Source: a virus | Reading direction: 5' to 3' (one strand) | Virus record (IMG/VR): IMGVR_UViG_3300029427_000006 | DNA length: 45,441 bases | Shown: positions 9,704 through 41,097 of the stretch, in pieces | Layout of the letters: each line of letters starts with the position of its first letter | How positions within the stretch are numbered: position 1 is the stretch's first letter | Made by a program: the position numbers and the translations under genes | Notes under the pieces: generated by a model | Told to the model about the DNA's origin: nothing | The model's database searches: none | What the model saw: the letters and a program-made list of their open reading frames with translations, nothing else

Positions 9704-9715
9704 GCGCCGTCACCC

Positions 9716-10153
9716 CTATTTTCTGCGCCAACGTTTGTTTGCTCCATCCCAAGACAACCCGTTCGCCTTAGCTTCTGCTCGCAAATTGTAAGTTTGCCCG
9801 CTGATAGAGTTCACCTTCGACCAGTTAATTCCGAAGGTTTTTCCATCAAGCGCACCATGCGCGACTTCGTATGTTAGATACTGCGTTCTGTTTGTTTTGG
9901 CTGTTTTCGTGCGTGTTACTGGCTGAGCATACGAGAACGTCAGGTTTCCTTTCCCGTCAGTCGTTGCTTCAAGGACTTCCTCTTTGTGATAGCTGCCGCC
10001 CCAGCCTCTTGCCTCACGAAAAGTTCCCTCGATAATCTGCTTTTTTGCTTTTACGAGCGCTCCATCGCTTGACCCTTTCACATAGCCTGCACCGCCTCCG
10101 CCGCCGGAACCGCCGCCGCGCCCTCCGAACAGCTCAAGACTGATTTCTAGCAC
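9716..10153 (-). CDS. Hypothetical 145-aa protein with N-terminal LELFGGRGGGSGGGGG motif
   Basis: GTG start with RBS AAGGAGGG. Gly-rich N-terminus. Lies between the portal and MuF genes. Confidence 0.55.
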   Translation of the reverse strand: MLEISLELFGGRGGGSGGGGGAGYVKGSSDGALVKAKKQIIEGTFREARGWGGSYHKEEVLEATTDGKGNLTFSYAQPVTRTKTAKTNRTQYLTYEVAHGALDGKTFGINWSKVNSISGQTYNLRAEAKANGLSWDGANKRWRRK

Positions 10154-13982: not shown

Positions 13983-14018
13983 AAATGCAAAAACAGGACG
14001 TCACTTATACGCCCTGTT
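13983..14018 (-). terminator. Hairpin with T-rich tail upstream of terS
   Basis: Minus strand reads aacagggcg-tataagtga-cgtcctgtt followed by tttgcattt. Confidence 0.45.
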
Positions 14019-14042
14019 CTTTTATCATTTCTTTGTCGTTTG

Positions 14043-14234
14043 TTATCTCATAAAGGCAGCGAAGGAAAACGTCTTCGCCCTGACACCGAATTTCTTAGCC
14101 ATTTGCTTGCTTTTCTCATTGAACGCATCTTCAAACGGCTTAACCATAGCCTTCGCCTCGGTCTTCTGAATTTTACCGTTGGCATATAGGAATTTGGCTT
14201 TGTAGGCCTGTTCGCGAGCTTCTTCGATGCTCAT
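14043..14234 (-). CDS. Small 63-aa hypothetical protein
   Basis: RBS GGGGAGGGGAATTGAA-ATG. Sequence MSIEEAREQAYKAKFLYANGKI. Confidence 0.5.
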   Translation of the reverse strand: MSIEEAREQAYKAKFLYANGKIQKTEAKAMVKPFEDAFNEKSKQMAKKFGVRAKTFSFAAFMR

Positions 14235-14312
14235 TTCAATTCCCCTCCCCGTCATCTGTTTTCTTGCTTATATCTTAAGGCAACGCGGCGGAAATGTCGA
14301 GGAGTTTTTTAA

Positions 14313-14942
14313 TTATTCTTCTGTTTCTTCATCAAAAACAAAATCGTAAGGTTCGAGATTTATATTTTTGTTATTGCCTCTGATGAAAACAAGAACATTC
14401 TGATGTGTTCTAACGACCTTTCTTCCGTTTTTGAATTGAAGATCGGCTCGCAAGGCTGCTGTTGCAACGGGATCAATTTTTACAATGTCATTGTAAAGAG
14501 AGCAGCCAGCATCGTTGAAAGCTTTGATCGTGTCCGAATAGAACCCTCGATATATCCCCTTTTTGTCCCTTATGTCGCTGATTACAACCGCGCAATAAGC
14601 ATCATTTTTCAGCAAGGAAACTGTTCTGCTGATGATTTTTGAATATGTCGAAATAAAATTTTCGTAAGTCATGTTCGAAATATCTTTGGGATCGTCAGAA
14701 TATTTTTCGAGGTCTCCGTATGGTGGGCACATCAGAAGAAAGTCAAATCCGCTTTGATTTACAATCCCCTTTATATCCATGCTGTCTCCACAATGCCACG
14801 TCGGCTTGTTTTCCATTTGGCAAGCAGACGGGTCTATACGGATCAGCTTTTCGAGCGCTTTGTTATTTTCGTCAATCTGCTCCTGCCGCAGATCAACGCC
14901 AGTATAATAATCTCCAAGGTACATGCTGACGAGGCCGCGCAC
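14313..14942 (-). CDS. DNA (amino) methyltransferase, catalytic part downstream of a frameshift
   Basis: CPPY (motif IV) and GDS are present. The frame continues upstream as IIDPFAGGNVRG (motif I) if one G of the G8 run is removed. Confidence 0.8.
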   Translation of the reverse strand: MRGLVSMYLGDYYTGVDLRQEQIDENNKALEKLIRIDPSACQMENKPTWHCGDSMDIKGIVNQSGFDFLLMCPPYGDLEKYSDDPKDISNMTYENFISTYSKIISRTVSLLKNDAYCAVVISDIRDKKGIYRGFYSDTIKAFNDAGCSLYNDIVKIDPVATAALRADLQFKNGRKVVRTHQNVLVFIRGNNKNINLEPYDFVFDEETEE

Positions 14943-14961
14943 ATTTCCGCCAGCAAACGGG

Positions 14962-15642
14962 TCAATAATTCGCCCCCCCCTTTGGGCAAAACCAGCGAAT
15001 CATGAGCTCACATAATACAGGATCAAATTCGCTCGTTCCATTAAGGGAGGAACATCCAGATTTTTCTGCGAGGTCTTTAAACCCGCCGATCAGGTCTTCA
15101 TTTCGTCCATCTCGAGAATCCGCTCCAAAGATATCATGCCAGAGATTTTTTCTTTTTTGCCATGCCCCAGATCGACCGTCAAGAATACTAAATGGCGGAA
15201 ACACATATTTTTCTGATAGCGTCGGCCTTTCGCCGTCCAATTCACGCCACTTGGATTCCGAATTTAGAGAATCGCCCAAATCGTCATCGAACCCAAACTG
15301 CCCCATGTCGAAATCTTGGAGATCAAGCAATTCCTCGGAAAGCAGATCAGCGTCCCACTCCGCAAGCTCGCTTGTCTTATTGTCCGCCAGCCTGTACGCC
15401 TTGACCTGTTCTTCGGTCAGGTTGTCCGCGTATACAACAGGCACTTCCTTGCATTTCAGCTTTTTCGCGGCTTTGTATCGGGTATGCCCGGCAATGATAA
15501 CTCCGTCCTTGTCAACGACGATGGGCTGCTGCCAGCCGAACTCTTTAATCGACGCGGCGACAGCATCAACCGCGCTATCGTTTCTGCGCGGGTTCTTTTC
15601 GTATGGTCGGATTTCCGACAGTTTGACGCGCTTGATCTCCAT
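14962..15642 (-). CDS. ParB-like N-terminal domain protein, the N-terminal part of a ParB-methyltransferase fusion
   Basis: IRPYEKNPRRND...GHTRYKAA is the ParB-N signature. The ORF ends just after the G8 run (..CPKGGANY*). Confidence 0.8.
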   Translation of the reverse strand: MEIKRVKLSEIRPYEKNPRRNDSAVDAVAASIKEFGWQQPIVVDKDGVIIAGHTRYKAAKKLKCKEVPVVYADNLTEEQVKAYRLADNKTSELAEWDADLLSEELLDLQDFDMGQFGFDDDLGDSLNSESKWRELDGERPTLSEKYVFPPFSILDGRSGAWQKRKNLWHDIFGADSRDGRNEDLIGGFKDLAEKSGCSSLNGTSEFDPVLCELMIRWFCPKGGANY

Positions 15643-28421: not shown

Positions 28422-29009
28422 ATGAAAAGAATCGTTGCTCTGCTGGCTCTGATGTTTGCTCTTCTTCCCATGTATGTCATAGCAGAAAACAAGATCGACC
28501 CGAAGGACTGCATCCCGTTCCCGGCTGACTGTAAAAAGGCGGATGTCGCCGCCACCGCTCTCTATGCTGTCGATGTTCCCGATCCTCAAAGTTACGATTG
28601 GAGTTCAAGTGCGGAAGCCCTGCACGTTACGGAGGATGGTGTGTTCTCCCTGTTTCTGGGGAAAGGCACGTTGACGGGCGTTCCGAAGGACGGCAAAGGG
28701 GAAACGATCAAGATATCATTGTCCGCGCCCGATACCTATTTCAGCTCTAAGGATATCGTCATAGATTCGCCCGATGGCGAAGATTTGTATATGCTCCTCA
28801 GCGCAAATAGCGGCTCACATTTCTGCATCGTCAGCACACAGGGGGATCAGTGTTTTACTTATGACAGAATAAACGAGCGCAAGTATGGAATATGTGAAGC
28901 CTATCACATCGCGCCCGTCAGCGAGGGAAAAGGATCTATCATATATACAATCGATAACAGCAAACAATATAAAATCAACATCACGGTCAAAGAATCTGCC
29001 ATCGAATAA
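28422..29009 (+). CDS. Secreted protein (signal peptide), moron in the lysogeny module
   Basis: MKRIVALLALMFALLPMYVIA-ENK resembles a signal peptide. RBS AAAGGGG. The region is A/T-rich by eye. Confidence 0.65.
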   Translation: MKRIVALLALMFALLPMYVIAENKIDPKDCIPFPADCKKADVAATALYAVDVPDPQSYDWSSSAEALHVTEDGVFSLFLGKGTLTGVPKDGKGETIKISLSAPDTYFSSKDIVIDSPDGEDLYMLLSANSGSHFCIVSTQGDQCFTYDRINERKYGICEAYHIAPVSEGKGSIIYTIDNSKQYKINITVKESAIE

Positions 29010-29039: not shown

Positions 29040-29804
29040 TTGGCTAAGAAAGAGAAAAAGAAAGCAGGCTGTTTATCCCGCATTTTCAAAGCGTTTTCCT
29101 ATTTTTGCGTTGCAATCGTCGTCTTGGCGTTCATTGGCTCGGTAAACAAGCACAGCAGCGAAGACACAGCAGCGCAGGATGAACCGAATGTGCAAGTTGA
29201 GCAGACAGCCCGCGCGGAGAAAACCCCAGCGCCGGCGAAAACGCCAAAGCCCACAAAAACGCCGAAGCCCACAAACACACCAAAGCCAACAAATACGCCG
29301 AAACCGACGGCAACGCCTGAGCCCGATACCCTACAAGGATGGGCGGAATCCGTCGCGAACTCTGTATATGGCAGTTACGACCCCAAGTACAGTGACTTGA
29401 TCTCCGTGACGTGTGAGCAAATGCTCGGCGAGGATGCGCCCATGATTCAGCTCGACGTGAAATATCCAGATACCTTCATGCGTAAGAACGATGATCGAAT
29501 GGGCGGCTTCCTGTATAACGCAAAAGAAGCGAACGAGAAGTTCGCAAATCTCGCTAAAGATGGAAAAATCGTGTACGGGTCGGTTAATATCGTCGCTCAT
29601 ACGACGTATCTTGACAAGTACGGCAACGAGAGCGACGGTATGGCTGCATCTATCCGCGTGAAAGCATCGGAAGCGGCAAAGGTCAACTGGGATATTCGCA
29701 ACTTTACTGCTGAGATGATGCCGGGGATCGCCGTTTCTTTCGGTATCAATCCGATCATCCGTGACGGCCTGTCGCTCGAATACTACGCAAAAATCCGCTA
29801 CTAA
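29040..29804 (+). CDS. Membrane-anchored protein with a TPKPT repeat linker
   Basis: Basic N-terminus, a TM segment (FSYFCVAIVVLAFIGSV), (K/N)TPKPT x5, then a C-terminal domain of about 150 aa. TTG start. Confidence 0.65.
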   Translation: MAKKEKKKAGCLSRIFKAFSYFCVAIVVLAFIGSVNKHSSEDTAAQDEPNVQVEQTARAEKTPAPAKTPKPTKTPKPTNTPKPTNTPKPTATPEPDTLQGWAESVANSVYGSYDPKYSDLISVTCEQMLGEDAPMIQLDVKYPDTFMRKNDDRMGGFLYNAKEANEKFANLAKDGKIVYGSVNIVAHTTYLDKYGNESDGMAASIRVKASEAAKVNWDIRNFTAEMMPGIAVSFGINPIIRDGLSLEYYAKIRY

Positions 29805-30274: not shown

Positions 30275-31390
30275 ATGGCAAAAGCAAAAAAATTGCCGTC
30301 CGGCAACTGGCGAACACAGGTTTACCTCGGAAAGGATGCAGCAGGAAAGCCCATTGTCGAATCCTTCACCGCCTCGACTGCCCGCGAATCTGAACGCCTC
30401 GCTGCCGTCGCCGCCGCCGATCACAAGCGGAAGAAGAAGCAAACGCTGACGCTCGGTCAGGCAATGGACGAGTTTATAGACACGTGCCGGGTACAAGGCT
30501 ATTCGCCGTCCACAATTCCGGCGTATGTCTCGATACGGGAGAACAGCTTCCCGGTGCTTATCTCTTTACGCTTAGATCAAATCACAGAGCGGGATATCCA
30601 AAAAGCGATTGACGCAAGAGCTAAAGATCATGCCGTGAAAACGGTTCGGAATGAGTTTTACTTTCTGCGCTCTGTTTTGGGCAAATACGCGCCTGATTTG
30701 AATTTGTCCGGGATTGTCATAGCCAAAAGGAAGAAACAGAAGAAGCAGCTTTTTTCCGAAAACTGGGCGCGAGACGTGCTGGCCTATGCAAAAGAGAATT
30801 GGGAAACGGATTACTACCTTTATTGCTGCTTCATTGTGAGCGCGGGTTTGCGCCCGTCTGAGGCGTATGCTTTGACGTGGGGGGATATGTCCGCTGAACC
30901 TGTTTCCGCAATCAGCAGAGACGGGAAAGCGTACAAGATGGGGCTTTTAAGCATCGACAAGGCCACAGTGCGCGATGAATCCCGCTCATACGTCAGAAAA
31001 AACGTCACAAAAACAGATGCCGGAGAGCGCGCGCTTCGTCTCGACTGGTCTTTTTTCCAAAATCTGTACGACTGCAAGCCACGAGGCGCTGACCATGCCC
31101 AAATACTGACGCTAAAGCCGAACCTCGTTGACTACCGTTGGAAAAAATGCAGGGCGGCGCTTGGGCTTCCCGAAAAGATGCGCTTTTACGATCTGCGTCA
31201 TTTTTTTGCAACATCCGTTGCCTACTCCGGCGCGTCCGAGGAAGAGCTTGCCCGCGTCATGGGTCATTCAACGTCCGCTTTCTCCCATCAGGTGTACGTC
31301 GAGCTTTTCCGCGAACGGCAGGAATCCGTAAACGCCGAGCTGGCCGCAGGAACGGCGGCGCTCTACGAATCCATCAAGAAACCCGTGTGA
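30275..31390 (+). CDS. int: Tyrosine recombinase / phage integrase
   Basis: RPSEAYALTW (catalytic Arg region), YDLRHFFAT, MGHSTSAFSHQVYVE (His/Tyr region). Lies adjacent to attP. Confidence 0.95.
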   Translation: MAKAKKLPSGNWRTQVYLGKDAAGKPIVESFTASTARESERLAAVAAADHKRKKKQTLTLGQAMDEFIDTCRVQGYSPSTIPAYVSIRENSFPVLISLRLDQITERDIQKAIDARAKDHAVKTVRNEFYFLRSVLGKYAPDLNLSGIVIAKRKKQKKQLFSENWARDVLAYAKENWETDYYLYCCFIVSAGLRPSEAYALTWGDMSAEPVSAISRDGKAYKMGLLSIDKATVRDESRSYVRKNVTKTDAGERALRLDWSFFQNLYDCKPRGADHAQILTLKPNLVDYRWKKCRAALGLPEKMRFYDLRHFFATSVAYSGASEEELARVMGHSTSAFSHQVYVELFRERQESVNAELAAGTAALYESIKKPV

Positions 31391-31614
31391 AATTCCGTGT
31401 GAAATGATTTTGCAAAAGTTCACACGAAACTGGAAACGTGATACACGAAACGAGTAATAATTTACACTGAATAAAATAGACGGCAAAAGAAAAAATCCAG
31501 AAACCTTTGTGGCCTCTGGATTTCCTGTTTGGTGCGGTAGATGGGACTTGAACCCATTTGTTCCAGTTGTATTTACTAGCTTTTTTGTTCTTCGTGTGAA
31601 ATTTCGTGTGAAAT
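31384..31614. other. attP region: arm-type repeats CGTGTGAAAT flanking a tRNA-3'-end core
   Basis: Direct copies start at 31384, 31396, 31593 and 31605. Inverted copies (ACACGAAAC) lie at 31422-31430 and 31443-31451. Confidence 0.6.
31530..31557 (-). other. attP core: 3' end of a tRNA gene (T-arm + acceptor + CCA), not a complete tRNA
   Basis: Minus strand reads ATGGGTTCAAGTCCCATCTACCGCACCA. The upstream sequence does not fold as the rest of a tRNA. Confidence 0.6.
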
Positions 31615-31628
31615 CGCGCCAAAAACAG

Positions 31629-31949
31629 CTAGTTTCGATATGCTTTCAGCTTTCGGATCGCCGCCGCGTATGCCTTCGGCGCGACGATCTGCAAGCCCTG
31701 AATCGTGTCTTCCAGCGCATCGACAAGCTCGGCAGACGACAAGCCTGCACACGCAGCGCGGAACTCGCTTTCCGGCTCCGCCGCCATCGAGTACGCCGAA
31801 ACGGGCGCTTCCTTCACATCCTGCACAGATTCGCTTGCCATGTGTGCCCGAAGACCGTACAGCACCGCCAGACGTTCAGCGTCTTTCACGCTCGTCCCTT
31901 CGCGCTTGATCTTGGTGATGGTTTCGTCGATCTCTTTCAGGTCGATCAA
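31629..31949 (-). CDS. Hypothetical 106-aa protein (last gene before attP)
   Basis: TTG start after GGTGAG. Acidic and helical in composition. Confidence 0.5.
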   Translation of the reverse strand: MIDLKEIDETITKIKREGTSVKDAERLAVLYGLRAHMASESVQDVKEAPVSAYSMAAEPESEFRAACAGLSSAELVDALEDTIQGLQIVAPKAYAAAIRKLKAYRN

Positions 31950-31965
31950 TGCCGCTCACCGCCCG

Positions 31966-32334
31966 TCAGGCGTTGCGCAGCTCGTCCATCGCGCGGCGGA
32001 TGATTTCGCGCTGTTCGCCGGTCGCGTCGCGCATGATCTCTTCCATTTTGCGCATCATGCTTTCGCGCCCGTCGTCACGGCTGTAATGCCCGCGCACATA
32101 ATGCTCACCGCGCCGGTCGTTGCGCCCATAGCTTCCGCGCACGTCAGCGCGCCACTCCGCGCTGTTGCTGTACCCTTCGTCCTCAAGAATTTCGATTTTG
32201 TCAATATTTTTGATGGTGTCGGTCAGCTTGTGGACGGTTTCGAGGTCGCCGGGGTTCATGTCGCGCTTGGCGGCGATTTTGTCCAGCTCATCGCAAAGCA
32301 TATCGCGCAAGTCGCGCATCGCTTTCATGCTCAT
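31966..32334 (-). CDS. Hypothetical 122-aa charged protein (RGEHYVRGHYSRDDGRE motif)
   Basis: RBS AAAGGAGCAAAAA-ATG. Helical ends with an R/D/G/Y-rich centre. Confidence 0.55.
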   Translation of the reverse strand: MSMKAMRDLRDMLCDELDKIAAKRDMNPGDLETVHKLTDTIKNIDKIEILEDEGYSNSAEWRADVRGSYGRNDRRGEHYVRGHYSRDDGRESMMRKMEEIMRDATGEQREIIRRAMDELRNA

Positions 32335-32348
32335 TTTTTGCTCCTTTC

Positions 32349-32771
32349 TCACGCCTGCCGCGTGACGATCAGGTTTGCGTTGGCAACGTCAATCGCTTGC
32401 GCACTGATGTTTTTCAGCGCGGCGGTTACGCAGCATCCACGCGGCACATCGACAAACGCAGAGACGGAAACATTAAAATAGTTCTCGACCGCCGCAGGGG
32501 TGACGATAGCGACGGCGCTATTCAGCGTCTCGCCGTTTATCGTCAGCGCAACGGAGATCGCTTCAACCGTTCCGCCAGTCGGAATGGCAATGTTCCCGGC
32601 GAAGTCCACAAAGTACCGCGCTCGGCACTGGTTCGTCAGGCCGCGAAGTGTTACGATTCCCGCGCCCTCTCGATGGACGATGCACGGAGAGCCGCAAATC
32701 GGCGTTTCGGTCAGCGGTAGATTCTGGCCAGCCGCGACAAGTGCCGTGCTGGCGTTGGTATACTCAGCCAT
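32349..32771 (-). CDS. Hypothetical 140-aa beta-rich protein (possible TNF/C1q-type jelly roll resembling exosporium BclA-CTD/ExsFA-type proteins)
   Basis: RBS GAAAGGAGATAATCT-ATG. The call is a by-eye resemblance only (the ...IDVANANLIVTRQA end and alternating hydrophobic strands). Confidence 0.5.
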   Translation of the reverse strand: MAEYTNASTALVAAGQNLPLTETPICGSPCIVHREGAGIVTLRGLTNQCRARYFVDFAGNIAIPTGGTVEAISVALTINGETLNSAVAIVTPAAVENYFNVSVSAFVDVPRGCCVTAALKNISAQAIDVANANLIVTRQA

Positions 32772-32885
32772 AGATTATCTCCTTTCATAAGAAACGGCGG
32801 GACACATTCGCCCCGCCGTCGTTGCAGAATCAGCTCAGGGCTGAACAGCTCGGTCGCGCCGAACAGTTGCATCTCTTATGCGATT

Positions 32886-33701
32886 TTAGCAGCCACAACC
32901 GGCGTTAGCAGCGCAGCCGTAACCGTAACCGCCCGTGTAGGGGTTCGGCACCTGATACGCAGGGACGGCGACAGGCTGACGCAGCGCGTTGATGATCTGC
33001 GCAGTCTGCGCCCCCATCTCCGTGGTCAGCAGCGCAGACTGACGCTCCTGCGACGCGGCGCGGCGAAGATCGGTGTTTTCCGCCTGCAACGTCGCGATCT
33101 TGTCCTGCGTCAGGAAGTCGAGAATCGCACGGCTGTTGGCGTTCTGGTTGTCGATCACGTCGCGGGTGTTGCTGTTAAGCGTGTTCTGGATGGCGCAGAA
33201 GCCCTGCTGCATCTGGTTGCGCGTGTCGCAAGCCTGAGTAGCGAGGTTGTAATTCACGCCCTGAATCGCTTCGCGCGTCTCGCAGCAGCAGTTAGCTTGC
33301 TGCATCTGCATCGTAAAGAGCTGCTGCATGAGCGCCGCCTGCTGGTTCGCACGGGAAAGATCCGCCGCGCTGAAACCGCTATTGACGGCGTTGGTGATGG
33401 CGTAGGTGCTGTCACAAAGCCCGTTCTGGATGGCGCGGATGCCGTTGTCAATGCCGTTGATGGCAAAGCCTTCGTTGATGTCCGCGCGGGTCGCGTAGCC
33501 TTGGAAGCCCGGAGAATTAGCGCCGTTGTTGCCGAAGCCGCCGCCCCAGCCCATGCCGCCCCAGCCGCAGAACATGAAGAGGAACAGAACGATGATCAAC
33601 CACGCGCCGTTCCCGTCTCCAAACATGCCGCCGTTGTTGCGATTTCCACCCGTTACCGCCGCGATATCGGCAGGGGTCATTTCAGAGGTTGTCAAAGACA
33701 T
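32886..33701 (-). CDS. Protein with GG-leader-like N-terminus, Gly/Trp-rich TM segment, N/Q-rich Cys-containing helices and a Cys-rich tail
   Basis: MSLTTSEMTPADIAAVTGG-NRNNGG..WLIIVLFLFMFCGWGGMGWGGG...CCCETRE...GYGYGCAANAGCGC. ATG at 33701 is 9 nt after AAAGGA; GTG at 33707 is an alternative start. Confidence 0.6.
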   Translation of the reverse strand: MSLTTSEMTPADIAAVTGGNRNNGGMFGDGNGAWLIIVLFLFMFCGWGGMGWGGGFGNNGANSPGFQGYATRADINEGFAINGIDNGIRAIQNGLCDSTYAITNAVNSGFSAADLSRANQQAALMQQLFTMQMQQANCCCETREAIQGVNYNLATQACDTRNQMQQGFCAIQNTLNSNTRDVIDNQNANSRAILDFLTQDKIATLQAENTDLRRAASQERQSALLTTEMGAQTAQIINALRQPVAVPAYQVPNPYTGGYGYGCAANAGCGC

Positions 33702-33752
33702 TTTCACACGTCCTTTCGTTTTTATCGCTAACCGTGCGCACGGATTTAGCCG

Positions 33753-33983
33753 TTAGAGACCTTCAAAGAGGCTTTGGAACTGGCGGGCGATGCCGTAGAG
33801 CTGATTAAACTGTTGCTGCGTCATCTTGCCGCTGTTGAGTAGGCGCTGAACCTCTTGCTGCGGATCGCCGTTAAATCCGGCCTTGAACCGCTTGAACTCC
33901 TGCGCCATCCGCTGAAACTGTCCCATCTGTCCGGGCAGATTCCCAGACATGCCCTGCATCGCATTAAACAGCGGGTTGCTCAT
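33753..33983 (-). CDS. Small Q-rich 76-aa protein
   Basis: AGGAGG followed by 9 nt then ATG. Sequence MSNPLFNAMQGMSGN...GDPQQEVQRLLNSGKMTQQQFNQL. Confidence 0.5.
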   Translation of the reverse strand: MSNPLFNAMQGMSGNLPGQMGQFQRMAQEFKRFKAGFNGDPQQEVQRLLNSGKMTQQQFNQLYGIARQFQSLFEGL

Positions 33984-34410
33984 CGACTGCATCCTCCTTT
34001 TTTCTGCTCGGCTTTTTTGCCAGCGCATCAACCCGCGCCACAAGCGCGTTGAAGTCGTCGCGGGTCACATAATCGGCTGATTGTACGGGAGGCTCGGCCT
34101 GTCTCGGCGCTGTCCTCTCGGTGTAGTCAAAGATTCGCATTGACGGCATACCGCTTGCGTCCGCAGATTTGAGATAAAACGTCAAAGATTCGCTATCCAT
34201 CAGCAGAACACCGCTTCCGGGGCTGACCGGGTAGCTTTTCGCCGCTGCTTCGCCCTGAACCCAGATGATTCCGCCGCTATTTTGAGCTGGCGCTTGCTGC
34301 GCTGGCTGCTGCGGCATATACGGCTGTGATCTGAGCTGTGCGAGTTGATCTTGCATAGGTGGGTAATAACCGCCGTATGGCTGCTGCCAGCCTTGCATCG
34401 GATAGGCCAT
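33964..34410 (-). CDS. Hypothetical 148-aa protein with a Q/P/Y-rich N-terminus
   Basis: RBS GGGAGGGATGATTT-ATG. MAYPMQGWQQPYGGYYPPMQ..., then a globular segment IIWVQGEAAAKSYPV. Confidence 0.55.
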   Translation of the reverse strand: MAYPMQGWQQPYGGYYPPMQDQLAQLRSQPYMPQQPAQQAPAQNSGGIIWVQGEAAAKSYPVSPGSGVLLMDSESLTFYLKSADASGMPSMRIFDYTERTAPRQAEPPVQSADYVTRDDFNALVARVDALAKKPSRKKEDAVDEQPAV

Positions 34411-34413
34411 AAA

Positions 34414-34809
34414 TCATCCCTCCCAGTAGTAAAGGGGCGTTTCGCCGCCGCTGTCCCATGTGTCATACCAATCACCGTTCACGACCGCGAGAACGTGTCC
34501 ATTTGTCGCCAAAACGTAAACACCACGCGGAAAGTCTCGACAGAAGTCCGAAACCGTGTAGCAGTCCGGGCACGTCTCCGGGATGCTGTGACGCTTGAAG
34601 CCTTTGCGCCGAAGATACGCGCCCCAGACGTGATTTGCGTTTGGCATATCCCCTGCACAGAAACCGTCAAGGCAAAGCGCAACGAAGACGCTTTCCCATG
34701 TTTGACCTGTGGCCTTGCTTACGGCTCTAATCGCGCAGTCGCCGACACGAGAATGAAAAGGGTTTGGATTAAATGGAACAAACACGCTCTCACCTGCTTC
34801 TGCCCTCAT
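34414..34809 (-). CDS. Stand-alone protein with a papain-like (C39-like) Cys/His arrangement
   Basis: VGDCAIRAVSKATG (candidate nucleophile) and NGHVLAVVNGDWYDTWD (candidate His/Asp). The start is uncertain because ATG 34809 has a weak RBS. Confidence 0.45.
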   Translation of the reverse strand: MRAEAGESVFVPFNPNPFHSRVGDCAIRAVSKATGQTWESVFVALCLDGFCAGDMPNANHVWGAYLRRKGFKRHSIPETCPDCYTVSDFCRDFPRGVYVLATNGHVLAVVNGDWYDTWDSGGETPLYYWEG

Positions 34810-34870: not shown

Positions 34871-35419
34871 TCAGTCCCACATGTTCTCGCTCACCGCCTC
34901 CTGCCACTCGGCCTCCATGTCGCTGACGGCCTTTTCCCAGTCGTCGCCGTCAAGGATGCGCTCGACGGCTTTTCTGCCTGCGCTGGCTTTGCGGTAGTTG
35001 GCCGCGCGGGAGTAGCTTTCCGCGCGGAGCATCGCGGCCGCCATCGGGTATTTCGCGCTCAGCTCTGCCGGATCGCTCTTTGGCTTGGCGGGATAGATGC
35101 CGCTACCGCTATCCACAGCCCGCGCGAACGCTTCGCGGTAGGTCGCTTGCTCGGCTTTCGCCGTCTCAAGCTCTTTAAGCCCCGGAATCGCGGCGCGGAA
35201 ATTCCGGCGGCGCTCGGCGGTTTCGCGCTCTTCGGCTTCCTCGGCCATCAGCGCGGCCTTGATCTCCTGCACCTCGGCGGGATGCGCCTTGACCAGCTTG
35301 ACGGCCTTGTCGCGCGGAGATACGGCCATCTTGTCGCCAACGAGGGAAAAGCTCAGGCCGGAGTGTTCAAGGATTTCGCGCGCGGCGGTGGAAAGCTGCT
35401 GTTTGTACTTTTCTTTCAT
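34871..35419 (-). CDS. Hypothetical 182-aa protein (promoter-ORF-terminator moron)
   Basis: RBS GGAGGAAGAAACC-ATG. A consensus promoter lies upstream and a terminator downstream. Confidence 0.65.
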   Translation of the reverse strand: MKEKYKQQLSTAAREILEHSGLSFSLVGDKMAVSPRDKAVKLVKAHPAEVQEIKAALMAEEAEERETAERRRNFRAAIPGLKELETAKAEQATYREAFARAVDSGSGIYPAKPKSDPAELSAKYPMAAAMLRAESYSRAANYRKASAGRKAVERILDGDDWEKAVSDMEAEWQEAVSENMWD

Positions 35420-35527
35420 GGTTTCTTCCTCCGATCAGGTTGTTGTTTTCTTGTTCCTTATGGCTATATTATACATCGTTTTAATTTACTTGTCAAGTGT
35501 TTTATAAATCTTTTTTATTTATTTTTA
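35417..35527. repeat. Promoter/5'UTR cassette copy 1 (about 110 bp, near-identical to 37098-37207)
   Basis: Aligned by eye. ...ccgatcaggttgtt...ttatggctatattatacatc.ttttaatttacttgtcaagtgtttt... is shared. Confidence 0.85.
35468..35496 (-). promoter_or_regulatory. Consensus sigma-70/sigma-A-type promoter TTGACA-17-TATAAT (copy 1)
   Basis: Minus strand has -35 at 35496-35491 and -10 at 35473-35468, with A/T-rich sequence upstream. Confidence 0.75.
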
Positions 35528-35565: not shown

Positions 35566-36309
35566 TTATTGATCCGGATCGCCCGGTTTGCGCCTATGCG
35601 CTGGCGTGATAGGCAGGGACAAAAGCCCCCAATCCTTATAGTGATATACAGATCCCTTACACGATGGATTGCCGCGCATGCTTGCCGCGATCTTTTTAAA
35701 ACCGCTTGCTATACGTTTTGCGGCGATATCTCGCTCCTCTTCCGGGGTTTGCGGCTCAAAGAGCCGGTAATTGTTGCGCGCCCAGTCGAGCAGATTGGTG
35801 CATGGCACTTGATTCCCGCTCGGATCGACCAGCACCCAGATCTTGCTCCCCCTATTTTGCGGCCCGCGCTGTCCCTCCGGTTTTGCAAGCGCCGCTTGCA
35901 AAGCACGCGGCTGCAACTCGTCCATCCGCGCCTTAATGTCAGGGTCTTCCGCGCGTCGCCTTTTCGCAGCCTCTCCCCACTTGCGCGGCTTGTCATGCGA
36001 CGACTTCGCCGCCCGAAGACGGCGGCAGGTGTCCGAGCAGGTCACACGGTTGTCCGAGCGGTATGAGTCAAACGGCTTTCCGCAGATCACACACGTTTTT
36101 GTGATTTTTCCAACCGCCTTGCATCCGCACGATGTCGTCTTTCCCGCGATCAGGCTGCTCGCGTAGTACGACTTTACGCTGCCACATCTCAGACATTCCG
36201 CGTCGCATCGTGTCTTAGACGACGCTTCCGGCAGCCGCCAAATTCGCAGGACTTTGAGGTCGCCAAACACGTCGCCAACCTGCATGTTAAGCTTTCGTGG
36301 CACGCTCAT
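35566..36309 (-). CDS. Zn-ribbon / Cys-cluster protein, 247 aa (possible DNA-binding or homing-endonuclease-related N-terminus)
   Basis: VGDVFGDLKVLRI...CDAECLRCGS...TSCGCK...CVICGK...CSDTC. ATGA overlap with the upstream gene. Confidence 0.55.
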   Translation of the reverse strand: MSVPRKLNMQVGDVFGDLKVLRIWRLPEASSKTRCDAECLRCGSVKSYYASSLIAGKTTSCGCKAVGKITKTCVICGKPFDSYRSDNRVTCSDTCRRLRAAKSSHDKPRKWGEAAKRRRAEDPDIKARMDELQPRALQAALAKPEGQRGPQNRGSKIWVLVDPSGNQVPCTNLLDWARNNYRLFEPQTPEEERDIAAKRIASGFKKIAASMRGNPSCKGSVYHYKDWGLLSLPITPAHRRKPGDPDQ

Positions 36310-36785
36310 CGCCTCCCGAATTCGCCGCCGACGAGGATGCGCGGCAGACCCTTGTACATGATGGCATCTTCGCCGCGGCTGTCAACCCAGCGCGCGCCGC
36401 CGATCTCATCGACGGTCATCGGCTGCTCGCCCTGCCAGTCCGCCAGCGTAAACTGTACGCCCTCGGACTGGATCACGGCCATAATGCCAACGGCCGGATG
36501 CTCGACGAGGTAAAATATACCATACTCGTCGAGCACCGTCTCGGCCATGATGGGCAGCGCCTCCGTGCGCCCGGTCTCCCAGTCATAGACGGCCAGCCGC
36601 TGGGCGTCGCCCCGCAGATAGGCCGCCGAAACGTTCAGCGCGTCCGCCAGCGCAGGCAGAATCTTGTTTCCGGGGTTGCTCTGCCCCCCCTCGTAGTTGT
36701 TAAGCTGCTGGGCGGATATACCCATCTTGTCCGCAAGCTCTTTCTGCTTCAATCCGCGCAAGACGCGCAGCTGTTTAATGTTCAT
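36306..36785 (-). CDS. XRE-family HTH fused to an unknown C-terminal domain of about 95 aa
   Basis: LKQKELADKMGISAQQLNNYEGGQ. RBS AAGGAGGAAAAAAGC-ATG. Confidence 0.7.
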   Translation of the reverse strand: MNIKQLRVLRGLKQKELADKMGISAQQLNNYEGGQSNPGNKILPALADALNVSAAYLRGDAQRLAVYDWETGRTEALPIMAETVLDEYGIFYLVEHPAVGIMAVIQSEGVQFTLADWQGEQPMTVDEIGGARWVDSRGEDAIMYKGLPRILVGGEFGRR

Positions 36786-36803: not shown

Positions 36804-37100
36804 TTACGCGGCGACGAGCGCGCCGGTCATGTTGTCGATGTAGCCGATCTCAAGATCTCGCTTGCGGTTCCACGCGTTGGTGTAGATGCGCGCGGCGACA
36901 TAGGTGCGATTGTGGCTTCCCTTCACCCAGTCGTTGCAAACGACCTTGTAGTTCCAGCCGGATTCCTTGCCCTCTTTCTCGGCGGCGATCAGCGCCTTGG
37001 CCAGCGCCCACGCGCCCTTGAGCGCAACACTCAGGCTCAGGCCAAAGCTCTTGACCATGATCCACGCGCGCTTCATGATGATCTGCTTGTTGTACTTCAT
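36804..37100 (-). CDS. Hypothetical 98-aa protein (first gene behind promoter copy 2)
   Basis: RBS GGAGGAAATCAAA-ATG. Sequence MKRAWIMVKSFGLSLSVALKGAWALAKA. Confidence 0.6.
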   Translation of the reverse strand: MKYNKQIIMKRAWIMVKSFGLSLSVALKGAWALAKALIAAEKEGKESGWNYKVVCNDWVKGSHNRTYVAARIYTNAWNRKRDLEIGYIDNMTGALVAA

Positions 37101-37207
37101 TTTGATTTCCTCCGATCAGGTTGTTTTCCTTGTTCTTATGGCTATATTATACATCTTTTTAATTTACTTGTCAAGTGTTTTGCAAATTATTTTTATTTAT
37201 TTTTTTG
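37098..37207. repeat. Promoter/5'UTR cassette copy 2
   Basis: Near-identical to 35417-35527. Confidence 0.85.
37146..37174 (-). promoter_or_regulatory. Consensus promoter TTGACA-17-TATAAT (copy 2)
   Basis: Minus strand has -35 at 37174-37169 and -10 at 37151-37146. Confidence 0.75.
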
Positions 37208-37211
37208 CATT

Positions 37212-37240
37212 AAAAAAAGCCCCTGCCATCAGGCAGGGGT
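37212..37240 (-). terminator. Rho-independent terminator ending the lysis operon
   Basis: Minus strand reads cccctgcc-tgat-ggcagggg followed by cttttttt. Confidence 0.7.
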
Positions 37241-37456
37241 GTTATCATCTGTATGTATAGATGCAGACATCCGTCTTTTAATTTCGCGAATGCTGCGGCT
37301 GACGGTTGCGGGCGACATGCCCAGTGTCATGCTGATCTGCACAATGCTGTAACCGCGCCAGAGCAGGTCAAAGACCTGCCCCAGCCGGACATGCTCGTCA
37401 AAGCCGCAGCAGCGGGCGATTTCTTCTTTCGTGCGCCTGTCAAAGTCAAGGCGCAC
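37229..37456 (-). CDS. Small sigma-70 region 4 / LuxR-type HTH protein
   Basis: LLWRGYSIVQISMTLGMSPATVSRSIREIKRR. Confidence 0.55.
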   Translation of the reverse strand: MRLDFDRRTKEEIARCCGFDEHVRLGQVFDLLWRGYSIVQISMTLGMSPATVSRSIREIKRRMSASIHTDDNTPA

Positions 37457-37472: not shown

Positions 37473-37802
37473 TTACACGCTGGCTTCCTCGACCACTACG
37501 GGCGCGGCGCTCTCCAACTTTGCAATCTCGGCATTCACCAACTCGACAAGCTCATCTGTATCCAACTTATATCCATGCGCGTCAAGCCGCTCCTTTACCC
37601 ATGCCAGCTTCTCTTCGCCGCGTCCGGAGCCAGTGTACAGCTTTTCGGCGGCGAATACGAGGATAGACACGAGGTCGCGGATTTCGCGCCGCTGGTCAAG
37701 CGTCGTCTTGGCCTTGATCCACGGGACGACATACCGCGTAATCAGCGCGGCCACGAGGACGATCAGCGCCTGGAAGATGGGGGTCAGGTCAATATTAGAC
37801 AT
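37473..37802 (-). CDS. Holin (LL-H family-like)
   Basis: N-terminal TM segment IFQALIVLVAALITRYVVPWI, then VFAAEKLYTGSGRGEEKLAWV as in LL-H holins. Adjacent to the endolysin. Confidence 0.65.
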   Translation of the reverse strand: MSNIDLTPIFQALIVLVAALITRYVVPWIKAKTTLDQRREIRDLVSILVFAAEKLYTGSGRGEEKLAWVKERLDAHGYKLDTDELVELVNAEIAKLESAAPVVVEEASV

Positions 37803-37841
37803 AGATAGCCTCACTTTCTGCTCGGTCTTCACCGGGCAACG

Positions 37842-38279: not shown

Positions 38280-39038
38280 TTAATCCTCCGCCAGCGCCCA
38301 CGCGCCGATCAGTGTGATATACACGCCGTCGCTCCTGCACAGGGTCGTCGTGGCAGGTTTTCCTTTTTCGCCCTCCTCGACGATCAGCACCGTGTCCTCG
38401 ACCAGATACTCGCTGGACATGTACCCGGCCTCACCACTTTCCAGCACGCCGAAGACCCAGCCCGTGCCGCCCGCCTCGCGGATGATGTTCACCCGCGCGC
38501 CGTTCTCGGCTTTTGCGATGACCTTTGACCTCGTGCTTGCGCCCTCGCGGATGTTGAGATATCCGCTGGTCACGCTCACCGTCGCATTGCCAAAAATCTT
38601 TTCTGCTTCACTCACTTCCGTTTTTACTCCCTCCGAATAGTCCACACCGATCATCCGATGCGCCCCCAGCCCGTTCCAGCCGTTCTTTTCCGTCAGCGCG
38701 GTTTCAACCACGCCGCCACGGCTCTTGCTTGAGTGGATGACCGTGCCCCGCTCCGTCACCAGCCCGGTGTGGCTCACGTCGCCCGTGCCCACGCCCATGA
38801 ACGCCAGCATGCCCGCCTTCGCGCTGGAAATCCCCGTCTGCCGCCAGATCAAATGGCGATACTTCGGCACGCTGTCAAAACTGTTCCAAAGCTCGTTTGT
38901 GCCCGCCGTCGTGTAGCGCTTGTCGCCGCCCGGCGCTGTGCGGATGACCTTCTTGATGAGGTTGATGCAGTCCAGCTCGCTGTAAGGCGTTCCGATCAGC
39001 GCCCGCGCCGTGTGGATGGCCTCGCTTGTTTCAATCAT
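38280..39038 (-). CDS. Endolysin: NlpC/P60 peptidase + SH3 domain
   Basis: LIGTPYSELDC (catalytic Cys) and DVSHTGLV (His). C-terminal SH3b-like segment GYLNIREGASTRSKVIAKAENGARVNI. Confidence 0.8.
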   Translation of the reverse strand: MIETSEAIHTARALIGTPYSELDCINLIKKVIRTAPGGDKRYTTAGTNELWNSFDSVPKYRHLIWRQTGISSAKAGMLAFMGVGTGDVSHTGLVTERGTVIHSSKSRGGVVETALTEKNGWNGLGAHRMIGVDYSEGVKTEVSEAEKIFGNATVSVTSGYLNIREGASTRSKVIAKAENGARVNIIREAGGTGWVFGVLESGEAGYMSSEYLVEDTVLIVEEGEKGKPATTTLCRSDGVYITLIGAWALAED

Positions 39039-39600: not shown

Positions 39601-41097
39601 TTAGGTTGTAGTCATAGACGCAATCGCGTCCTCAAGATTTTTGATTACGATGTTCACATCGCGCTGATATGCCAGCTTTACCCCCGCGCCGTCTGTGGCT
39701 TGCACCACGGTCTCAGGCGCGTAAGCGGTGAGGGCTTTGTAAGCGGCGATTTCAGCAGGTGTGAGCGGGGTCTCAATGGGAGTGGCGAGGGCGTAGTAGA
39801 TAACGGATTTCACATTCGCCAGCAACTGCTTAAAGGCTTCGAGCGACGAGTATTCCGAGTTTGGCGGAAAGCTGATAGTAATCTCTTGATTGTTTGCATA
39901 TATCTTAGGTAAATTCTGCGGAATATCGTCCCACCTATTGTTTGTATAACGCAGTGTATTGCAAAAACACGGCTTTCTTGTAAGGGCTACATCTGCATCA
40001 TAAATACGCTCTTGGAAGTTGTTGTTCCCGCTATCTAGTTTTCTGTATGCCCATGCATCATTGGGACTTAGCTCTTTCGCTTTTACCCTCTGCACCTTCA
40101 CCCCTCTCTTCAAGTCCACCTCGTCGCAAATCCACTGCTGTCCCTGCGGGTCAGTGTAGTTGCCGCCAGAAGTGACAGGGATGCCGCGCAGGCCATTCGG
40201 CGTTTGCAGTGTGATCGTCCGCTGTCCATCTGCACCATCGCCGACCGTCACCAAGATTGTCCCGCCGTCTCCCGCGCTCACAATCGGTACCGGGTTATCC
40301 GGGCTTGGTGTGCCGTCCTGCGTGCTTTTGCCGTACACGGTCAGCCCGCACAGCGGCGCGGGAAAAGCGTCAGAGACAGATACAGGATTGCCCGTTTCGG
40401 TGCCGATCAAGATATTCTGGCGCGCTTTGTCGGCCTTCTCAGCAACAGTCTTCTCGATTTCCGCCAGCCGCTTTCCCGTTGCGGCCGCGTCCGCCGCCTC
40501 GCCCTCCTGGGTCAGCGTCGCGTCGATGACAGCATCCTTGCCCGGTTCGCCTTTTGCGCCCCTGTCCCCCTTGTCCCCTTTTTCGCCCTTGGGTCCCTGC
40601 GGGCCTTGCGGCCCTACAAAGTCGCCATTATCCAACCGCTGCTGTACTTCGTCCGCGATCGCCTGCGCGGCGTTTCCCGCCTGCTCAACGTTGGCCAGCG
40701 TGCCAGTTGCTTTGTCGATCCATGTTTCGACCGGATCAGGCGCTGGGGCAGTTGCGTCGCCAAGAGACTCACCGACGCGCGTACAGGCAATCGCAGTCTT
40801 GATGACCGTGCCATCCGCGTCTCGGATTGTGATTTGGGCTTGCCCGCTTCCGGCTTTATCGCCGATATCCGCGCGCGTGATCTCCCACGTCAGGATACCG
40901 CCCTCTTGTTTCACCACCGCCGGATACTCCGCCCGGCCAGGCGGCTTGACCGTGATCGACGCAATAGCATCCGGATATTGGCTCAATATGCTTTTCAGGT
41001 CGACCAGCACCCGCGTCGCGCGATTTTCGCCGACACGGCCAAGCAGCAGCGCTTGATCGCCAAAACGGTCAAGCGCCAGAATGATATCACGCATCAC
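39601..41097 (-). CDS. Second tail fibre / receptor-binding protein (BppU-N-like N-terminus, collagen-like G-X-Y run)
   Basis: GPQGPQGPKGEKGDKGDRGAKGEPG. N-terminal Ig-like segment resembling BppU. Contains a low-GC patch at about 39850-40090. Confidence 0.7.
   Translation of the reverse strand: MMRDIILALDRFGDQALLLGRVGENRATRVLVDLKSILSQYPDAIASITVKPPGRAEYPAVVKQEGGILTWEITRADIGDKAGSGQAQITIRDADGTVIKTAIACTRVGESLGDATAPAPDPVETWIDKATGTLANVEQAGNAAQAIADEVQQRLDNGDFVGPQGPQGPKGEKGDKGDRGAKGEPGKDAVIDATLTQEGEAADAAATGKRLAEIEKTVAEKADKARQNILIGTETGNPVSVSDAFPAPLCGLTVYGKSTQDGTPSPDNPVPIVSAGDGGTILVTVGDGADGQRTITLQTPNGLRGIPVTSGGNYTDPQGQQWICDEVDLKRGVKVQRVKAKELSPNDAWAYRKLDSGNNNFQERIYDADVALTRKPCFCNTLRYTNNRWDDIPQNLPKIYANNQEITISFPPNSEYSSLEAFKQLLANVKSVIYYALATPIETPLTPAEIAAYKALTAYAPETVVQATDGAGVKLAYQRDVNIVIKNLEDAIASMTTT

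Follow-up and report, generated by a model that had tools for sequence, protein, structure and literature searches.

Trimers of ExsF (BxpB/ExsFA), an exosporium protein of the Bacillus cereus group, dock the conserved leader peptides at the N-termini of fiber proteins, and BclA loses its residues 1-19 by proteolysis (PMC12357932). This BclA/F-Anchor system is among the closest described counterparts of an unannotated seven-gene cassette (g1 to g7) that we analyzed in the virus genome IMGVR_UViG_3300029427_000006 from IMG/VR; the whole stretch of 45,441 nucleotides (nt) is referred to here as the window. The likeness lies in g5, a stand-alone protein of ~140 amino acids (aa) with a TNF/C1q fold, in the conserved N-terminal peptide of g4 and in a peptidase that is always present. 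In contrast to the BclA system, the cassette is phage-borne, has neither a collagen stalk nor the leader motif and also occurs in phages of non-sporulating hosts. Docking of leader peptides is known for the BclA system, whereas the pairing of g4 with g5 is proposed here by analogy.

Other described systems resemble single parts of the cassette. With the Rz-type i-spanins and the class III holin gpT of T4, g4 shares a single N-terminal transmembrane (TM) segment, a large and mostly helical domain and conserved cysteines, and its gene often lies beside holin or endolysin genes. However, g4 has no holin or spanin family match and no lipoprotein partner, comes with five or six soluble partners and a peptidase, and has a likely topology (N-out/C-in) opposite to that of Rz and gpT. 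Morons and conversion cassettes, such as HK97 gp15 and the toxin genes located after the lysis genes of streptococcal and staphylococcal phages, are similar in being self-contained inserts; like them, the cassette has its own terminator and promoter-like box, is att-proximal and downstream of lysis genes, and occupies variable sites in differing backbones. It differs from them in being multi-gene and conserved, in containing an internal structured RNA and in its presence in virulent phages and late recoded blocks. The small papain-like Cys/His/Asp fold of g1 and the leader-like N-terminus of g4, which ends in GG, GS or GN, recall C39/double-glycine maturation, but the cassette lacks an ABC transporter and any family-level match to such systems, its putative substrate would be a membrane protein of large size, and the g4 motif persists where an HExxH peptidase replaces g1. 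No known system matches the cassette.

A scan of one genome per species identified 52 loci, mostly in Oscillospiraceae, Lachnospiraceae and other Clostridia. These loci, together with two phage records, were searched with the window proteins by tblastn. This analysis revealed g5 at all 54 loci and g4 at 52, followed by g1 (42 loci), g2 (41), g6 (39), g3 (35) and g7 (6), and the order and strand of the genes were always the same. Loci that seemingly carried g4 and g5 alone in fact held diverged g2, g3 and g6. The holin, lysin and integrase of the window were essentially never found at the 54 loci. Over about 60 loci the order g1-g2-g3-g4-g5-g6(-g7) was kept while the flanking lysis, integrase and head genes varied; the seven genes are therefore an accessory cassette of gut phages that is autonomous and moves horizontally. 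The set that the original prediction had picked out from one sequence is strongly conserved outside this phage, and confident homology to ordinary structural proteins was not found for it. Matches in metagenome-assembled genomes labeled 'Collinsella', 'Bacteroidales' and 'Oxalobacter' probably reflect binning contamination and were not used for host range.

The position of the cassette varied among carriers. It follows the lysis genes at the prophage end in the window, in prophage L059, in Dulem virus 33 and in Butyrivibrio phage Ceridwen. In the isolate prophage L011 it lies between a minor head protein gene and the scaffold/capsid genes, in L055 and L066 between the capsid gene and a fiber gene targeted by a diversity-generating retroelement (DGR), in L068 directly after the integrase gene, and in L010 beside host genes. 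A Pfam scan of open reading frames (ORFs) within 3.5 kb upstream at 30 loci returned 9 endolysin-type, 6 holin, 6 Phage_min_cap2 and 4 Minor_capsid_2 matches, the counts referring to ORFs and not to loci. With a terminator and a putative promoter-like box upstream, variable sites and a full siphovirus gene set outside it, the cassette has the hallmarks of a moron or accessory cassette. The complete g1-g6 set was present in phage Ceridwen, for which a lytic cycle alone was observed and which was judged virulent (PMC7372960). The original prediction had placed the genes between the lysis cassette and attP, in the classical slot for lysogenic conversion. This location is right, except that five unrelated genes lie between the lysis genes and the cassette, and an att-proximal cargo slot was also identified in L059, Dulem virus 33 and vir215; a pure conversion reading is nevertheless weakened, since the cassette is present in virulent phages and the g4 homologue of the crAss-like genome cr53_1 contains a recoded TAG, like late genes.

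An XhlA-like gene was located upstream of the cassette in L055 and L066. These belong to a group of prophages (L055-L058 and L066-L067) in which a terminase-to-capsid stretch is followed by the XhlA-like gene, a small helix-turn-helix (HTH) gene, a cassette of the second variant described below (variant B) and a DGR made up of target gene and reverse transcriptase gene. The L055-type lineage has no evident tape-measure or tail-tube gene in roughly 17 kb, and the L055 integrase gene follows that of the reverse transcriptase. We also considered whether the cassette is a second integrated element or the remnant of a tailless virus; this idea was dropped, as the cassette has no replication or capsid genes and always lies within a tailed-phage genome.

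In the window, the cassette comprises seven co-directional minus-strand ORFs (31629-34809), and all seven were present where the original prediction had placed them (Table 1). Each matches a PHROG family without assigned function, and g1, g4 and g5 each have homologues in at least about 8000 clusters at 90% identity; the ORFs are therefore genuine genes. The starts of g1, g3, g4 and g6 were refined from homologue N-termini and ribosome-binding sites, and the lengths first given for g3, g4 and g6 agree with the refined starts. For g1 the start is most likely GTG 34785 (123 aa), because a ribosome-binding site (AGGTGA, 34795-34790) precedes it, homologues begin with MFVxYNPNP, and the ATG at 34809 overlaps the -10-like box. 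A terminator followed by a TGC-nAnAAT-like box also lies upstream of g1 in several relatives (for example L018, L025, L044, L053 and L054). In the 200 nt before this gene, a terminator-like hairpin was seen at 25 of 43 loci, often with such a box immediately after it.

Residue counts agreed with the composition first described for g2 (Q/P/Y-rich), g3 (Q-rich), g4 (TM segment and cysteines), g5 (beta-rich) and g6. The g2 protein (Q16, P16 and Y9 in 148 aa) has a disordered, P/Q/Y-rich N-terminus in which the motif PDQLAQLRQ is conserved, as well as a small beta domain and a helix at the C-terminus; it is conserved in synteny at 41 or more loci and has a diverged form in variant B. The g3 protein is helical and rich in Q, M and N (Q14 in 76 aa), its homologues begin with MSNPLF, and it is syntenic at 35 or more loci. 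In g6 (R18, D15, E14), helical ends surround an R/D/G/Y-rich low-complexity core of RG/YSR repeats; the gene is syntenic at 39 loci and longer in variant B, and the RG-rich protein could bind RNA. The helical g7, described at first as acidic, is so only mildly (net charge -3); it was found in only about 7 lineages and takes the same position in prophage L059. Scans of all seven proteins against Pfam, NCBIfam and PADLOC gave nothing above threshold, and profile searches of g1, g2, g4 and g5 against PDB sequences revealed no relatives, in agreement with the view that the proteins are unassignable by sequence. No N-terminal signal peptide was seen by eye in the window sequences of g1, g2, g3, g5, g6 and g7, and literature searches for data on the function, proteomics or transcription of the cassette proteins found none.

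The signature protein of the cassette is g4, which has 10 Cys, 32 Gly and 28 Asn among its 271 residues and contains one hydrophobic helix. From the N-terminus it consists of a SLxDIAAxTG peptide, the Gly/Trp-rich hydrophobic helix, a Cys-rich helical domain of roughly 190 aa that is predicted to form a coiled coil and has an invariant CCC motif, a PVPAYxVPNP segment and a Gly/Cys tail (GCGC). Across 179 family members, cysteine accounts for 4.1% of residues and lies nearly always past the helix, and the N-tail is net negative, more so than the C-flank. A profile search returned 2,897 clusters at 50% identity. Full-length homologues were identified in many Crassvirales, under the annotation 'spike protein/glycoprotein', and in C3_41T2LP, a cultured phage of Bacteroides uniformis; these keep the N-terminal motif, the Gly/Trp-rich helix, CCC, PVPAY and the GCGC tail. 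Two viruses assigned to Methanomassiliicoccales have remoter homologues, as does C. perfringens phage XP41-N3. The g4 of vir215 retains the N-terminal motif, the helix and the CCC motifs, with the PVPAY segment and the Gly/Cys tail absent. No holin family of Pfam matched g4, and its 271-aa size and Cys-rich tail are unlike small holins. It also lacks a lipobox, and its common ground with spanins is the general architecture of a TM segment plus coiled coil. NCBIfam gave no match at E ≤ 0.1, so no bacteriocin or double-glycine-leader model matched. A role for g4 as membrane anti-sigma factor for the neighboring small HTH protein was considered and dropped; its N-tail is only ~30 aa long and its partners have no signal peptides.

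In crAss-like cr53_1 (L062), the g4 homologue directly follows a holin gene and a LysB/FtsL-like (spanin-like) gene and contains an in-frame recoded TAG. Late structural and lysis genes of recoded crAss-like phages bear in-frame TAG (bioRxiv 10.1101/2021.08.26.457843). Between 3904 and 8945 of cr53_1, in-frame TAG was seen in the holin, LysB-like, g4-like and downstream structural genes and not in gp67. The gp67 protein consists of DUF7841 plus an RG-rich tail, and DUF7841 is also encoded beside the g4-like gene of C3_41T2LP. Genes for the DUF7841 protein, for small beta-rich proteins and for an HExxH peptidase of the PolyVal type surround the g4 homologue in cr53_1; the HExxH protein of C3_41T2LP is annotated as a metallopeptidase of this type. 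These resemble the partners in Firmicutes phages in kind, but not detectably in sequence.

Analysis of an AlphaFold2 model of g1 (predicted local distance difference test [pLDDT] score 93) placed Cys25 at a helix N-terminus, His105 at the start of a strand and Asp116 on the next strand, the arrangement expected of a papain-like protein, with Cys at a helix N-terminus and His plus Asp/Asn on adjacent beta strands. The three residues were invariant across 40 sequences, consistent with the papain-like Cys/His arrangement noted originally. Foldseek matches to the papain clan were weak (best E 0.055) and comprised Josephin-2, AvrPphB, Tae4 and, at rank 10 with E 2.1, the ComA peptidase domain. Peptidase C39 was looked for in Pfam and NCBIfam and gave no match with g1, and the loci examined all lacked an ABC transporter. 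Judged by its motif and modeled topology, g1 is a papain-like peptidase without a close characterized relative. Its homologues, like those of g4 and g5, are almost all unnamed and on phage-sized contigs; g1 homologues of Bacillus phages carry the annotation 'putative peptidase'. Small peptidases of the g1 type were also seen outside the cassette, in large Bacillus phages (Tsamsa/Kirov group), Geobacillus phage GBK2 and Lak megaphages.

Two variants of the cassette were distinguished. Variant A opens with the Cys peptidase g1; variant B, without g1, has a gene for a small HExxH protein at its end. Across the variants, the genes for the two peptidases were mutually exclusive, the single apparent exception sitting 5 kb off. 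Thus, the peptidase is an integral component that has been swapped by non-orthologous replacement. The leader-like motif at the N-terminus of g4 was equally conserved in cassettes without g1 and in the crAss-like and archaeal-virus homologues. A function of g1 as cell-wall hydrolase was dropped, given the different fold (HExxH) in variant B and the presence of g4 in Methanomassiliicoccales viruses. Methanomassiliicoccales are not known to have a cell wall.

The AlphaFold2 model of g5 (pLDDT 89) is an all-beta, ten-strand TNF/C1q jelly roll that stands alone and contains an invariant VPRGCC motif; the protein is presumably trimeric. The top PDB matches in Foldseek were the C-terminal domain of F-BclA (9h38), BxpB (8d02) and ExsFA (7r1m), with TM-scores of 0.66-0.76, at a sequence identity of only 12-16%. 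TNF ligands, C1q and phage fiber tips followed, and Foldseek probability was 1.00 for 9h38, 8d02, 7r1m, EDA, 4-1BBL and C1q-family entries. Matches in BFVD were stand-alone proteins of ~135 aa from gut phages of the sipho-, podo- and myovirus type. Sequence homologues of g5 fell into at least 7,900 clusters, of which the best 120 were listed at 70-97% identity, and identity across the species-level genome loci was 37-73%. No Pfam match to g5, BclA_C (PF18573) included, was obtained at E ≤ 1, and a PDB profile search gave nothing relevant. Alignment of the g5 profile by hhalign with the positional analogues in L055 and C3_41T2LP revealed no homology. We considered a mucus- or glycan-binding role for g5, as TNF-like lectins exist, and dropped it.

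The original prediction had described all seven genes as tightly coupled in a single operon. Not every junction is tight: the g3 start overlaps the g2 stop by 20 nt, but gaps of 51 nt and 114 nt separate g3 from g4 and g4 from g5, respectively. The 114-nt spacer folds into three hairpins, the third of which is GC-rich with a U-rich tail and terminator-like, and a strong ribosome-binding site for g5 follows. RNAalifold analysis of 21 sequences revealed compensatory changes in 11 of 15 pairs. Pair counting on the stored structure gave 95.5% paired cells and 12 of 15 covarying pairs, a result reached by none of 500 shuffles, and slid-partner controls were far below the real covariation. Nearly all of the 29 distinct sequences have the first hairpin (H1) at this place, although its stem varies in sequence from locus to locus. 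A covariance model searched against both strands of 931 kb returned 32 matches, all on the coding strand and immediately after g4. No Rfam 15 match was identified in 32768-32888 at E ≤ 1.

The element stays after g4 even where another gene parts g4 from g5. Prophage L011 has a DNA methyltransferase gene (8825-9940) precisely at the point where the RNA element ends and g5 follows, which supports the g4/g5 junction as an insertion hotspot that also divides transcription units. In the related prophages L009, L012, L014 and L015, some 1 kb of additional DNA was observed here too. Given a conserved terminator-like element between g4 and g5, the cassette probably consists of two units, g1-g4 and g5-g7, and not of the single operon first proposed; in the window, no further transcription unit lies between it and attP. 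The covariation and its fixed place make the RNA most likely a conserved terminator or attenuator that joins the two units, and the element, seen in the window and at 31 related loci, is a candidate for a new cis-regulatory motif of gut phages.

The explanation that we favor, as a tentative possibility, is that the cassette encodes a peptidase-matured complex that acts at the cytoplasmic membrane late in infection, around lysis or egress. In this mechanism g4 would insert into the cytoplasmic membrane via its Gly-rich helix, with its Cys-rich coiled-coil domain facing the cytoplasm within reach of the partners; the placement is suggested by partners without signal peptides, by cysteines that lie mostly past the helix and by the negative N-tail. 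Trimers of g5 may form a docking hub, like BxpB/ExsF for N-terminal leader peptides, while g2, g3, g6 and g7 may serve as adaptors or chaperones via short linear motifs. The peptidase would mature or time the assembly, and the complex would work as a holin-accessory or membrane-disruption module in the productive cycle. We favor a late membrane role because the cassette adjoins lysis genes in unrelated lineages, because of the recoding in cr53_1 and the virulent carriers, and because g4 is portable; its spread over phages of monoderm bacteria, diderm bacteria and archaea fits a common target, the cytoplasmic membrane. In vir215, a multi-TM holin-like gene (recognized by eye; annotated as hypothetical) lies two genes downstream.

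Several observations weigh against a late membrane complex. A holin and an endolysin are already encoded by the window phage, lysis genes lie directly upstream in only about a third of loci, and the att-proximal cargo slot is a confounder of this adjacency. With a terminator and a -10-like box of its own, the cassette looks moron-like, which would fit expression in the lysogen. The topology of g4 is deduced from charge and Cys statistics alone, and g5 homologues were undetected beside the g4 homologues of Bacteroides or archaeal viruses. To our knowledge, no lysis accessory described so far comprises five to seven proteins with disordered regions. We also entertain a broader version, which is unlikely as a whole: the cassette may encode a hitherto unrecognized machine, complete in itself, that gut viruses of Firmicutes, Bacteroidota and methanogenic archaea have in common and in which a g4 coiled-coil platform would nucleate a protease-matured assembly of the TNF-fold trimer and phase-separation-prone proteins, cross-linked or metal-bound via cysteines. 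Such an assembly could be a new egress or membrane-remodeling apparatus or an exosporium-like protective matrix, its own RNA setting the ratio of the two sub-operons.

Expression from the prophage is the basis of a different explanation, in which g4, bound to the membrane of the lysogen or infected cell, its cytoplasmic partners and the peptidase would prevent or abort the DNA entry of competing phages or their development, as a superinfection exclusion (Sie) or abortive infection (Abi) system. The moron-like architecture, with its own terminator and -10-like box, would suit such a system, as would the att-proximal position in many prophages, the other cargo that it adjoins (toxin-antitoxin genes, a methyltransferase gene, morons) and a horizontal spread among unrelated phages and host phyla that is typical of defense genes; a membrane effector combined with a protease also recalls protease-activated pore formers. 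We nevertheless consider exclusion or defense improbable. PADLOC gave no match at E ≤ 0.1 for the seven cassette proteins and three neighboring ones, the cassette encodes no NTPase, nuclease or signaling enzyme, its low-complexity partners are atypical of defense systems, and phage genes surrounded it in every context examined (a subset of the 52 genome loci). It is carried by virulent phages, and its place in cr53_1 is in the late block with TAG recoding, whereas virulent phages have their exclusion genes among the early ones. That late block, where the cassette lies between lysis and virion structural genes, is also an argument for a place in the virion, internal and ejected or decorative, with g4 as a membrane-inserting ejection protein kept soluble by g3, g5 as a trimeric decoration or tip, and the peptidase maturing them as in polyvalent or internal-protein systems. 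Its location within the head or structural block of L011-type and L055/L066-type phages points the same way, as do the lack of signal peptides, the frequency of TNF-like domains as phage fiber tips, the PolyVal-type annotation of the C3_41T2LP metallopeptidase and a portability over host domains that fits a host-independent virion function. Against this stand a position that is not fixed relative to the structural genes, being downstream of the lysis genes behind a terminator in most siphophages, the complete siphovirus head and tail gene set that the window phage already has, and the conservation of g5, which is far higher than that of usual receptor-binding tips; we regard the virion-associated role as distinctly improbable.

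The original prediction, which was sound on the unassignable proteins and the cargo slot, had offered a secreted toxin/bacteriocin-like system or a remodeling of the cell or spore surface as explanations, and we infer that the cassette is neither. A surface layer or fiber of the exosporium-like BclA/BxpB type has in its favor that exosporium proteins are the best structural matches of g5, that Cys-, Tyr- and Gln-rich proteins assembled in the cytoplasm without signal peptides resemble spore-coat and exosporium proteins (PMC12357932), and that the Lachnospiraceae and Oscillospiraceae hosts include many spore formers. However, Ceridwen, a phage judged virulent, carries the full g1-g6 set, and its host Butyrivibrio fibrisolvens is not known to sporulate; the cassette has no collagen-like stalk, exosporium leader or BclA_C sequence match, and no sporulation-type promoter was evident. 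Bacteroides and methanogens are not known to form spores either, and the presence of g4 in viruses of Bacteroides and Methanomassiliicoccales therefore means that a spore-specific role is not general, which leaves spore or cell surface conversion with very little probability. For the bacteriocin, g1 would act like a C39 leader peptidase, its substrate being a double-glycine-like leader, either that of g4 or that of some other peptide. The g4 N-terminus (M..DIAAVTGG) fits a double-glycine leader in its spacing, g1 has a Cys/His/Asp triad, and ComA is among its weak fold matches. Yet g1 has no Pfam match of any kind and neither g1 nor g4 has an NCBIfam match; an ABC exporter and an immunity gene are both lacking; and the N-terminal motif is independent of g1, as described above. 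Moreover, g4 is a 271-aa membrane protein and no peptide, its charge bias suggests an N-tail that lies outside, away from a cytoplasmic peptidase, and g5 is unusually conserved, unlike fast-evolving bacteriocins. We consider the secreted toxin or bacteriocin the least probable of these explanations.

The window itself represents an essentially complete, circularly permuted genome of a temperate siphophage, with terminase, SPP1-type portal, major capsid, tape-measure-like and tail proteins, DnaB helicase and YqaJ recombinase. Its likely host belongs to the class Clostridia, judging from the related Oscillospiraceae and Lachnospiraceae prophages. Clostridia hosts are generally monoderm. On the minus strand, the tail genes are followed in order by genes for an NlpC/P60-SH3 endolysin, an LL-H holin and a 75-aa HTH protein. 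Relatives of this small HTH protein are encoded directly upstream of the cassette in L025, L033, L015, L055 and L066 and nearby in L068, and in L010 the cassette adjoins a divergent gene for a full sigma factor; judged from these positions, the HTH protein is possibly a regulator tied to the cassette. The holin-to-g1 interval holds five further genes, among them two promoter-plus-terminator morons. Both morons are bounded by intrinsic terminators and have a sigma-70 promoter that matches the consensus at 12 of 12 positions (TTGACA-17-TATAAT) and lies inside a ~110-nt direct repeat.

On the other side of the cassette, assignment of attP to the tRNA 3'-end fragment is plausible from its position; no complete tRNA was detected at attP by ARAGORN. 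The CGTGTGAAAT-type repeats of this region (31384-31623) are probably arm-type binding sites of the integrase. Before the integrase gene, the plus strand encodes a 195-aa protein with a signal-peptide/lipoprotein-like N-terminus (28422-29009) and a 254-aa membrane protein with a TPKPT-repeat linker (29040-29804), both without Pfam match; the two are candidates for true lysogenic-conversion or exclusion genes. In the tail region, a 498-aa protein with a collagen triple-helix repeat (39601-41097, minus strand) is probably a fiber; such a repeat is the usual type of stalk for TNF-like heads, but it is encoded 7 kb from g5. GC content dips locally to 0.43 at 14001-15000, at the packaging/early region boundary, compared with about 0.55 elsewhere, and this segment may be acquired DNA or a regulatory region.

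Table 1. Positions of the cassette genes and of surrounding features in the window
Feature	Position	Strand	Remarks
g1, papain-like cysteine peptidase	34414..34809	minus	131 aa from ATG 34809; phrog_3754, E 1e-27
g2, 148 aa	33964..34410	minus	phrog_21718, E 3e-33
g3, 76 aa	33753..33983	minus	phrog_22984, E 6e-19
g4, 271-aa single-pass membrane protein	32886..33701	minus	phrog_16490, E 2.5e-68
g4-g5 structured intercistronic element	32768..32888	minus	three hairpins; covariance model
g5, 140-aa TNF/C1q-fold protein	32349..32771	minus	AlphaFold2 model, Foldseek
g6, 122 aa	31966..32334	minus	phrog_28802
g7, 106 aa	31629..31949	minus	optional last gene
Intrinsic terminator upstream of g1	34850-34826	minus	terminator scan
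Extended -10-like box upstream of g1	TG 34816-34815; AAAAAT 34813-34808	minus	directly after terminator
NlpC/P60-SH3 endolysin	38280-39038	minus	
LL-H holin	37473-37832	minus	gene separate from g4
75-aa sigma-70 region-4/GerE-like HTH protein	37229-37456	minus	Pfam GerE and HTH matches; end of late operon
Moron 1	37174 to 35566	minus	98-aa protein, XRE regulator (36306-36785), 247-aa Cys-rich protein
Moron 2	35496 to 34871	minus	182-aa protein (34871-35419)
~110-nt direct repeats, 83-89% identical	35415-35526 and 37096-37204		promoters 35496-35468 and 37174-37146 (minus)
Intrinsic terminators preceding the ~110-nt repeat copies	35561-35538 and 37239-37220		
Tyrosine integrase	30275-31390	plus	
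attP core candidate: tRNA 3'-end fragment	31521-31548	minus	adjoins integrase
CGTGTGAAAT(T)TCGTGTGAAAT direct repeats	31384-31405 and 31593-31614		flank tRNA fragment; inverted copy near 31420

Few unannotated gene sets in gut phage genomes are as abundant as these seven families, each of which has thousands of homologues in such phages. What were seven hypothetical proteins are now a defined module with a fixed gene order, two peptidase variants, a membrane protein that crosses between bacteria and archaea, and a covarying RNA, and this module can be annotated consistently across viromes. Culturable carriers exist in Butyrivibrio phage Ceridwen, C. perfringens phage XP41-N3 and Bacteroides phage C3_41T2LP. 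A role in lysis or egress, if true, would make the cassette a component common to viruses of monoderm bacteria, diderm bacteria and archaea, and a role in exclusion, if true, would make it a new defense family; either would be useful to gut phage ecology and phage engineering.

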